Below are positions 18,204-20,744 of a DNA stretch of 64,000 bases, piece after piece (position 1 is the stretch's first letter; each line of letters starts with the position of its first letter). A model generated the notes under the pieces. That model was not told the origin of the DNA. It searched no databases and saw only the letters and a program-made list of their open reading frames with translations. Both the position numbers and the translations under genes were made by a program. The DNA is from Callorhinchus milii (Eukaryota), in the NCBI RefSeq assembly GCF_018977255.1, contig NW_024704760.1, positions 992,001-1,056,000 of the forward strand, read 5' to 3'.

Positions 18204-18621
18204 TCACTCTGAGGACACGTCTCTGACCCAAACCTTGATCAGAGAGTTTGTGTCGTACGTCATTGTGCCCGAGACCTGGACTTGGGCCAGGCTGACTCTG
18301 ACCAACTCATTTTCATTGGACCTGAAGACGGCCTTTCTCTGGAGGGCTGGGGAAGGGTCGGGACCCTTCACCACCGAGTACATATCTTGCCTGTCTCTGA
18401 GGCCGAGGTCTTGTGTGACGAACAAGCCGAGGTTTGGGCATAGCTCCCCCATGGCCACCGGGGTCTCAAACATCACAGCAACGAGGCTCGAGCCCAGCTG
18501 GTAACTCAACACCCCAACGCACTGGATGGAGGCTGGGCTGGTGGAGTAGGAGCTGACGCCCACACCTCCCGGTGGGATGTCCTCTGGCTCCTTGGTGGTC
18601 TCACTGATGTCGAGGAAGATC
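18204..18621 (-). CDS. Actinoporin-like protein (Anemone_cytotox/PF06369-type fold), coding exon 2 (IFLDISETTKEPEDIPPG...VGVLSYQL...VAVMFETP...DMY...VSGTMTYDTNSLIKVWVRDVSSE*); spliced protein 161 aa
   Basis: Acceptor tttatttcccag|G in phase 2, compatible with exon 1. VGVLSY, AVMF..P, MY and the C-terminal GTM....IKV.V occur in the order and spacing of actinoporin VGVLAY, LAVLFSVP, MY and GFM...ILEIHV. Confidence 0.85.
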
Positions 18622-18673
18622 CTGGGAAATAAACCAGGGGCTGGTGAGGATCGAGGCAAGGGCGAGGACAGAG

Positions 18674-19042
18674 ATAATAGCAATAATAATCCTTGCATTT
18701 GATACAGCGCCTTATCACGCTGTTGAAACGTCTCAAAGCGCTTCACAGGATACACTGTAATGTGAATTGAATGTATATTTTGTGGGCGAAATGCGGCAGC
18801 CAATTGCGCACAGCAGCGTCCCCACAAACAGTGGTGGATTAAGTAATTAAAGGGATTATTACCCCCAGAAAAGCAATCTGCCAATCGACTAACAACTGGG
18901 TTCCTACTTAACTGCTTGGTAAACAGAGGCGTGTGTAGTAAGAAAATTTGCCCAAGGGATTTTGCCCTGACCCACATGGGAATCGAACCCGGGTCCTCTC
19001 ACTTGCGAGGCGAGTGCGTTAATCACTACACTACCCGACTCC
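18674..19042 (-). mobile_element. tRNA-derived SINE, full length, inside the intron of the actinoporin-like gene
   Basis: Family head, body and tail; lies between the donor (19133) and acceptor (18622). Confidence 0.9.
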
Positions 19043-19133
19043 AAATTTGCACACTCTTAACCCGACCTCCAAGTTAGACAGACAGACAGACAGACAGACG
19101 CCAGTATCGCTGTGTAAAGAGACTCCGACTCAC

Positions 19134-19201
19134 CTGGGGCTGGTCAGTGAGGCCACTTTGCTTTCATTGGTGATCGTAACTTCAACGGACGCAGATTTCA
19201 T
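19134..19201 (-). CDS. Actinoporin-like protein, coding exon 1 (MKSASVEVTITNESKVASLTSP-R)
   Basis: Minus-strand ATG at 19201 (acgATG, A at -3) with an in-frame TGA 15 nt upstream; acceptor (C-rich tract...ctcccag) just before 19219; donor AG|GTGAGT after 19134, phase 2. The V.I.NES motif matches actinoporin strand 1 (IAVGVDNESG). Confidence 0.85.
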
Positions 19202-20744
19202 CGTAGCAAAATCTCAGGTCTGGGAGACTTTATTAGGGAATGTGGGGGTGGGGGGGGGGGAAATCAATTTGCTTTTAATAAACGTCACAGAGAAAGAGCG
19301 AAAGGTTATTACGAGGGGCCAAATAAAAGCCAGTTACATTAAACCGTCCGCTTGCTCATAGCGGAGCTTAAGGTGGGCAGAAACTGGATGCGATCTGGAA
19401 AGTTAAACACATTAAACCAACGGCTTGCTGGTTGGGTCTTTGGTAAAGCTCTGCTCCAGTGTCAGAACTTGGGAGTTGAGGTACGTACAGATCAGCCACG
19501 ATCTTCTAGAATGGCGGAACAGGCTCGACGGGCTGAATGGCCTCCTCCTGTTTCCTATGGCACGAAAGGTCATCAGCCCTGAAACGTTAAGCCACTTTCC
19601 TCTCTCCATTGATGCGGCCTGACCTGCTGAGCGTTCCCAGCCACTTCTGGGTTGTATTTCAGATTTCCAGTGGTTTTTTTTGCCTTCTGTTCTATTATTG
19701 CTGTATTTGTGTCCGCGAGTGCGTGGGCAACCTCTCCGGCAGAGGGCGCCGTTTCCCTCCCTCTGTTCCCCAAGTTTGGATCTCTTGAGTTTCTATTGCA
19801 TTCCAACGAAGCCCTCGGCAACCTCCAGGAACCTCTTAAACCCACCCCAGATAAGGCCTTAAGCTGAGCTCCTTTCTGTGCCCTGTCCAGGTGGACGTTA
19901 AAGATTCCCCGCAGCGATATTGCAAAAGCGAAGGGAGTTTTTCTCTCTCCCTCCCCCGGTGTCCTGGCCAACAATATAAGATAAGTTGGCCGTTGGCTTC
20001 ATGGCTGTTTGAGGGACCTTGCGGAGCTGAATGGCTCCTGCGTCTGCCAACAAATACAAAGTCACTATACTCTTGACCGAAGTATTTTTTTTGTAAAAAA
20101 ACAATTTTGAAGGGATTGTTACCCAGAGAAAAGCGATCCACCAATCAACTAACAACCAGGTTCCTGCTTACTGCTCAGTATCGGAGGCGTGTGTGTGGAG
20201 TAAAAGGAACTTGCCCTACGTTTGGACCTGCCCGGGAATCGTACCAAGTCCTCTCGCTTGGGAGCGCTCTAACCACTGAGCTACAGGATTCCACAATCTA
20301 AAAAGATCGCCTGAATAAGCAGCGTCTCATGATCTTTTTTTTACCCAAAGCGTTTTGCAAATAAATGTCTCGGGGAACCATATAAACCCATATAAACCCG
20401 CTCGAGTCTCAAAGGTCCAAATGCGCTAAAGTCAGTCAGTGGTAATACGGTGTTTGCTTTTGAAACCCCCAAAAAATCTTTTCTGCAATTTAAATGCACG
20501 TTTTCGGGGGTGGGGTGGGGGGGAATTTTTTTCAGATTCTTCTCCCCCCAACAGATTTGATCTGTTAATTAACCCCTTCACATAACCCATTAATTAACAC
20601 ATTGAATCTTCTAATTAATATTGTAATTTTCAGTTAGTAATTAGAGCCTGCGGTTCCAGTTGTGCCCAGAGCAGGACTGACAGTTTCAAGGTTTCCATTT
20701 ACGAAGCTACCAACCGTCAGAGATTCATTGCCATTTCATGGAAC

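Follow-up and report, generated by a model that had tools for sequence, protein, structure and literature searches.

A chimaera and shark actinoporin-like gene predicted to keep the toxin fold without its pore helix

Is a gene of a toxin family that lies beside CTTNBP2NL in a chimaera genome still a gene for a toxin? The question is raised by LOC103182428, which lies in a stretch of 64,000 nucleotides from Callorhinchus milii (RefSeq assembly GCF_018977255.1, contig NW_024704760.1, positions 992,001 to 1,056,000 of the forward strand; hereafter the window, whose numbering is used unless contig positions are named). A sequence-only reading of this stretch had proposed a hidden gene for a divergent member of the pore-forming actinoporin family, in a cartilaginous-fish host, with a speculative role in skin, spine or innate immunity. 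The host is C. milii by database name, as that reading supposed. The analysis points to a different kind of protein: LOC103182428 is a spliced, single-copy gene whose product, as modelled, keeps the actinoporin beta-sandwich and has no room for the pore helix. In the cytosol it would probably act as a soluble domain that recognises a ligand without causing lysis.

The gene and its transcript

The 161-residue protein is encoded by 486 nucleotides in two minus-strand coding exons interrupted in phase 2, namely 19201-19134 (68 nucleotides; donor CCCCAG/GTGAGT) and 18621-18204 (418 nucleotides; acceptor TTTCCCAG/G, stop codon TGA). This is the structure that had been read from the letters, and it is borne out both by the RefSeq protein XP_042198168.1, which is residue for residue the same, and by splicing. 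The gene is not hidden: RefSeq already holds it as LOC103182428, 'uncharacterized', with a further protein model, XP_007897638.1. An open reading frame (ORF) said to fuse the last exon to an intronic repeat is present as described, spanning the repeat into that exon over 264 residues. A protein search of the C. milii genome returned a single match at E<=0.001, the gene being single-copy by this measure.

Fourteen sequencing runs contained the stretch, none of them recorded as RNA; ten are guessed to be RNA (six examined) and four are unlabelled (one examined). Contigs skip the 512-nucleotide intron in all six examined RNA-guess runs, which come from two studies, so that the anticipated junction from 19134 to 18621 is found in spliced form; in the unlabelled run it is not skipped (0/1), and contigs cover it like genomic DNA. 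There are four exons in total, the upstream two non-coding, and the upstream introns, both GT-AG, lie at 19228-21337 (four of four runs) and 21464-22711 (two of four runs, with short sides of 32 and 28 nucleotides). The parts of the gene are as follows.

22712-22796, minus strand: exon 1, non-coding; donor CCCCAG/GTACTA; its 5' end reaches at least 22796, and a contig of one run covers 22712-22796
21338-21463, minus strand: exon 2, non-coding, 126 nucleotides; AG acceptor and GT donor; joined to exon 3 in four of four runs
19134-19227, minus strand: exon 3; 26 nucleotides of 5' untranslated region (UTR), ATG at 19201, the first 22 codons and 2 nucleotides
18622-19133, minus strand: intron of 512 nucleotides, phase 2, GT-AG; contains a multicopy repeat resembling a short interspersed element at about 18680-19045
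18204-18621, minus strand: coding part of exon 4; residues 23-161 and the stop codon TGA
17983-18203, minus strand: 3'UTR, minimum extent from spliced contigs; probably longer

Beyond the mapped 3'UTR, the nearest words resembling polyadenylation signals are ATTAAA at 17191 and AATAAA at 16795. At the other end, ATG is absent from the mapped non-coding exons (22880-22712, exon 2 and across the exon joints), the start codon is the first ATG of the mapped exons, and an in-frame TGA lies 12 nucleotides upstream of it, at 19216-19214. The mapped transcript therefore encodes no longer N-terminus. Contigs differ at four coding positions, of which two alter a residue and two are silent; across the seven runs examined the frame of the coding exons is never broken. 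Exon-sized word shares (0.36-0.48) in eight separate RNA-guess samples hint that the gene is expressed beyond one rare tissue, although contig depth does not measure expression.

Shark orthologs and family membership

A first word-based homolog search recovered only the gene itself, and orthologs surfaced with a profile search and phmmer. They are chiPu_0011052 of the bamboo shark Chiloscyllium punctatum (53% identity) and LOC144683429 of the basking shark Cetorhinus maximus (158 residues, 54% identity). Both contain the start MKSASVEV, which in the basking shark is the annotated N-terminus; the bamboo-shark model has 79 residues ahead of it, which we infer to be mis-predicted 5'UTR. These orthologs, 53-54% identical, show that the subfamily is old and conserved. 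They are also better evidence of selection than an intact frame amid repeats, so that the purifying selection suggested earlier gains support from the sharks and none from the density of transposable elements.

To what family do these proteins belong? A direct match to the actinoporin family PF06369 (Anemone_cytotox), which the sequence-only reading had proposed as a check, was not obtained: the single 161-residue protein matches no Pfam family and no PDB sequence at E<=10, and a profile of the three orthologs finds only HALT-1, at E 1.7. More sensitive comparisons uphold the proposed homology. Against a profile of seven conventional shark and chimaera members the protein scores 39.8 bits versus 5.5 for the best of 5000 shuffles, and hhalign to the conventional profile gives 96.6% probability over 150 columns; the seven-member profile itself matches equinatoxin II (EqtII) at 2e-6, and 19 of the 21 rows of the conventional-member alignment match PF06369 at E<=1. 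Over 1.84 billion representatives, phmmer gave nine matches at E<=0.001. Besides the gene and its basking-shark ortholog these are four proteins from songbirds, two from frogs and one from a shark, the frog and shark PF06369 proteins being matched at E<1e-3.

The genome of C. milii also contains conventional members. Six tandem genes lie at 9771005-9807570 of the same contig, 8.8 Mb from LOC103182428, each encoding about 180 residues; PF06369 matches all six, five above its cut-off. Five of the six are nearly identical, which could partly be an assembly effect. With such genes in the same genome, and vertebrate members long known, the earlier surprise at a fish member was misplaced. All six share with LOC103182428 a phase 2 intron at the same alignment column, which speaks for common descent independently of sequence similarity. 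Profile, predicted fold (below) and intron show that LOC103182428 is homologous to the vertebrate actinoporin-like proteins. The tandem cluster would be a better candidate than LOC103182428 for a defensive or toxin role.

Further traces of the family are scattered along the genome. A candidate seventh, very divergent exon stands at the cluster end (contig positions 9758830-9759240, minus strand), with a same-phase AG acceptor and the motifs PEDVP and GIAGIVTY; its scores are weak (hidden Markov model E 0.06 among 9237 segments, hhalign 38%), and no first exon was found for it. Dispersed partial copies of the conventional type occur at 15.016 Mb (C1), 82.125 Mb (C2), 94.718 Mb (C3) and 8.730 Mb (C4); three of the four have internal stops, and the match of C4 is weak.

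In a tree of 22 of the 29 aligned rows, the C. milii, bamboo-shark and basking-shark proteins form a clade with support of 100/99, in species order. An alternative in which the gene is a recent C. milii-specific duplicate was rejected by the approximately unbiased (AU) test (p-AU 2e-47). The three-species clade and this rejection place the duplication before the split of chimaeras and sharks, about 400 million years ago. A similar arrangement is suggested for the basking shark, where the ortholog and two conventional paralogs come from contigs of one and the same length and so may also share a chromosome.

Predicted fold, missing modules and probable function

AlphaFold run with a 29-row alignment gave a model with a predicted local distance difference test score (pLDDT) of 88 and a predicted template modelling score of 0.85. 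Foldseek relates this model to actinoporins at E 2.5e-9 to 1e-7, in line with what the sequence-only reading had expected of a structural search. VIA-align places Fav (Z 19.0), bryoporin (18.5), fragaceatoxin C (FraC; 18.1) and HALT-1 (17.3) highest, at root-mean-square deviations (rmsd) of 2.1-2.2, followed by Cry34Ab1 (15.3), Nakanori (14.7), a Sclerotium lectin (12.8) and ostreolysin A (11.2), with Z at 7.0 from rank 11. A separate Atlas model of the exact protein has TM scores of 0.87-0.88 to PF06369 clusters. The 161-residue protein is thus predicted to keep the actinoporin beta-sandwich.

Does it also keep the parts that make a pore? In actinoporins an aromatic cluster and phosphocholine site binds sphingomyelin, after which the protein inserts its N-terminal helix and oligomerises (passages of PMC8778704 and PMC7727798); in EqtII the pore helix is given as residues 6-28 (PMC8778704, same passages). 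Residue 1 of the LOC103182428 protein aligns in VIA-align to FraC 28, HALT-1 28 and bryoporin 25, and the only helix of at least four residues in the predicted model is 100-108, with none before residue 100; the pore helix is thus absent. Five residues precede the first strand, compared with 17-19 in 20 of the 21 conventional rows. Actinoporins carry a signal peptide and a propeptide; judged by the anatomy of the model, in which the first strand starts at residue 5, there is no room for either.

The lipid site has fared little better. On a residue list derived from passages of PMC8778704, EqtII W112, Y113, W116, Y133, Y137 and Y138 correspond in profile alignments to E82, L83, N86, Y104, V107 and K108, so that one of six is kept, although close to the helix the register could be wrong by one or two residues. 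No aromatic stands at positions 105-109 in any of the three orthologs, and the S, D, Y and Y at the places of EqtII S105, D109, Y113 and Y137, fixed in all 21 conventional rows, are replaced in all three. Two residues of the original site, Y104 and P77, survive. Actinoporins also have an array of exposed basic residues; what was computed for the present protein is its overall charge, about -5 to -5.5, with an isoelectric point of 4.8. C57 and C84 are invariant in the three orthologs and correspond to positions on either side of the former phosphocholine pocket; actinoporins typically have no cysteine (passages of PMC5198562). Without a pore helix, and with one of six lipid aromatics, the product is by its anatomy no working actinoporin, and the label 'pore-forming' finds no support in any working sense.

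What has replaced the lipid site is itself conserved. Residues 73-92 (MFExPVxxGELCxxLGL), which include E75, E82, L83 and C84, have 14 of 20 positions invariant among the three orthologs, versus 75 of 161 overall. The history that we favour is one in which an ancestral vertebrate actinoporin-like gene would have duplicated before chimaeras and sharks parted, the duplicate then losing the helix and the phosphocholine site, while the old lipid-binding face at residues 73-92 would have been rebuilt and afterwards held constant. Such a face likely binds something new. Given the acidity of LOC103182428's product, a protein is a likelier ligand than an anionic lipid, and binding would proceed without inserting into or perforating a membrane.

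Several points weigh against this picture. The function, ligand and location of the product are inferred; the RNA status of the runs is a guess, and they have no tissue labels. PF06369, at its gathering cut-off of 25 bits, matches none of the three orthologs. Single-sequence AlphaFold reaches a pLDDT of only 35.5, and the fold match obtained with the alignment is partly circular because most of its 29 rows are actinoporin-like proteins. Conservation is just as high over the first 25 residues as on the rebuilt face (17 of 25 invariant), and the counts come from three sequences, of which two are closely related. Many mussel members are predicted to be secreted without a leader (passages of PMC9645577) and fish venom glands appear to be holocrine (passages of PMC4448160), so that a cytosolic life does not follow from the lack of a signal peptide.

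The fold matches and the retained Y104 and P77 also bear on the idea that the protein is a domain that binds membranes peripherally, or glycans, in the manner of Dr1, Nakanori or the fungal fruit-body lectins, and serves innate defence at skin, gill or gut without forming pores. Nakanori and the Sclerotium lectin belong to the same fold family, and one table row of PMC4790908 gives an apnl gene of the stickleback among those with differential expression in gill, head kidney and spleen. We consider this rather unlikely, given that the aromatic cluster is gone and the net charge is about -5; the stickleback gene may belong to another subfamily.

Decidedly less probable is a targeting subunit of a two-component pore, in the style of aegerolysin/MACPF or Cry34/Cry35, or a regulator that co-assembles with the paralogs and dampens them. 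The helix-less architecture does resemble Cry34Ab1 and ostreolysin A, and six conventional paralogs are at hand in the genome. Yet actinoporins match better than aegerolysins, the paralogs have only a short N-terminal segment themselves, and the long ORFs listed for the window and its two 50-kb flanks include no recognisable partner (short exons would escape such a survey).

That the product is a toxin of the skin or of the venomous dorsal spine, as had been suggested, is highly improbable. The chimaera spine does bear venom and glandular epithelium, fish venom secretion appears holocrine (PMC4448160, same passages), and the fold is that of a toxin family. Such a role is hard to reconcile with the missing pore helix and lipid site, with a single-copy gene and with word shares in eight different RNA-guess samples, six of them shown to be spliced. 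The gene is moreover conserved in bamboo and basking sharks, which are not known to bear fin spines.

Helix-less members of the family occur beyond cartilaginous fish. The best distant phmmer matches are songbird proteins (E 1.4e-7, 31% identity), and helix-less songbird proteins (Manacus, Prinia, Passer; uncharacterized LOC genes) are sister to the shark and chimaera clade at 96/95. Like LOC103182428 they lack the N-terminal segment, with only 5-8 residues ahead of the first strand; unlike it they are multi-copy, and over part of the lipid site N/D and F are still in place. A single clade of the tetrapod proteins is weakly rejected (p-AU 0.036, with long branches and with groups named after the tree was seen), and the Manacus protein scores 41.8 bits with the C. 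milii cluster versus 37.5 with LOC103182428. Since that rejection is weak, bird orthology is not claimed, and the slightly higher score of the conventional cluster leaves it open; the link is suggestive. That chimaeras, sharks and songbirds share a second helix-less actinoporin branch of jawed vertebrates, with a rebuilt face, below Pfam detection and domesticated as an intracellular adaptor or as the targeting subunit of a two-component pore, is a doubtful proposition. The helix-less songbird proteins begin MGxNxS, a start that fits the N-myristoylation pattern, and a lipid anchor may replace the helix in them. Two Manacus isoforms diverge directly after PR, which is the intron position of LOC103182428.

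Neighbours and known relatives

LOC103182428 does lie beside CTTNBP2NL, as had been stated. Two features of the window describe this side of the locus.

30205-48692, plus strand: CTTNBP2NL (CortBP2 domain exons), with PF09727 matches
22000-23499, no strand: CpG-rich region between exon 1 and CTTNBP2NL; CpG observed/expected (o/e) 0.94-1.02, GC up to 0.70 in 23000-23499

The region 22000-23499 is likely a head-to-head promoter shared by the two genes. Against a CpG o/e of 0.59 for the whole window this region stands out, but values near 1 occur in some other bins too, and it is the GC content that carries the argument for a promoter. Might LOC103182428 be a transcribed relic riding the CTTNBP2NL promoter, without a selected function? 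Its branch is long (1.31 changes per column), the head-to-head arrangement with the CpG-rich region would allow it, and two of the four coding differences change a residue. Set against an open frame with the same start at 53-54% identity in two sharks, and no frame break in seven runs, the idea is scarcely credible.

On its other side LOC103182428 is flanked by what we take to be a Shal-type (KCND3-like) channel gene, and the six-paralog cluster presumably by a tetraspanin gene and DCLRE1B- and AP4B1-like genes. Those flanking genes are linked on human 1p13. Behind CTTNBP2NL, a Thr/Ser-rich open frame of 234 residues (56354-57058, plus strand) has no Pfam match, and just past the window an exon at contig positions 1059682-1060593 (plus strand) resembles an ELK-type ETS factor by motif.

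How does LOC103182428 compare with systems already described? It is closest to the vertebrate actinoporin-like proteins (Dr1/apnl; the shark and frog 'DELTA-thalatoxin-Avl1a-like' proteins of PF06369), to which it is homologous end to end at about 20-28% identity, with the same fold; with those of the C. milii cluster it shares the phase 2 intron. It differs from them in lacking their 12-13-residue N-terminal segment and their fixed S, D, Y and Y, in being acidic and below Pfam detection, and in forming a clade of its own (100/99). Zebrafish Dr1, whose helix is incomplete, binds membranes without lysing them and shows no specificity for sphingomyelin (cited in PMC8778704 and PMC6231492), and a sponge member has no helix region altogether (passages of PMC8778704), so that helix loss is not unprecedented.

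With the actinoporins proper (EqtII, FraC, the sticholysins, Fav; bryoporin; HALT-1) the model has the same beta-sandwich core in common (Z 17-19, rmsd about 2.2 over 140-150 residues), together with GVLxY, P77 and Y104. Unlike them it has no equivalents of residues 1-27, has two cysteines, is acidic and has no signal peptide or propeptide. The aegerolysins, Cry34Ab1, Nakanori and the fungal fruit-body lectins have a related fold (Z 11-15), but their identity to LOC103182428 is 7-14%; there is no Pfam match to the aegerolysin profile, and the fold similarity is lower than to actinoporins. Aegerolysins, Cry34Ab1 and fruit-body lectins are likewise not known to have a pore helix.

In the open-access literature, supplements excluded, no paper was found that names LOC103182428 or a Callorhinchus actinoporin. 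Vertebrate actinoporin-like proteins are known, and their function is described as unclear (passages of PMC5198562 and PMC6231492); their role is an open question, with one tested fish protein cited in the literature examined. What is new here is a conserved chondrichthyan subfamily that is invisible to Pfam and has shed both toxin modules. The whole subfamily escapes Pfam-based surveys, and automatic 'toxin-like' readings of such fish genes are unsafe. As a natural, long-conserved version of the actinoporin fold that is stripped of both toxin modules, LOC103182428 would isolate any non-lytic function of that fold.
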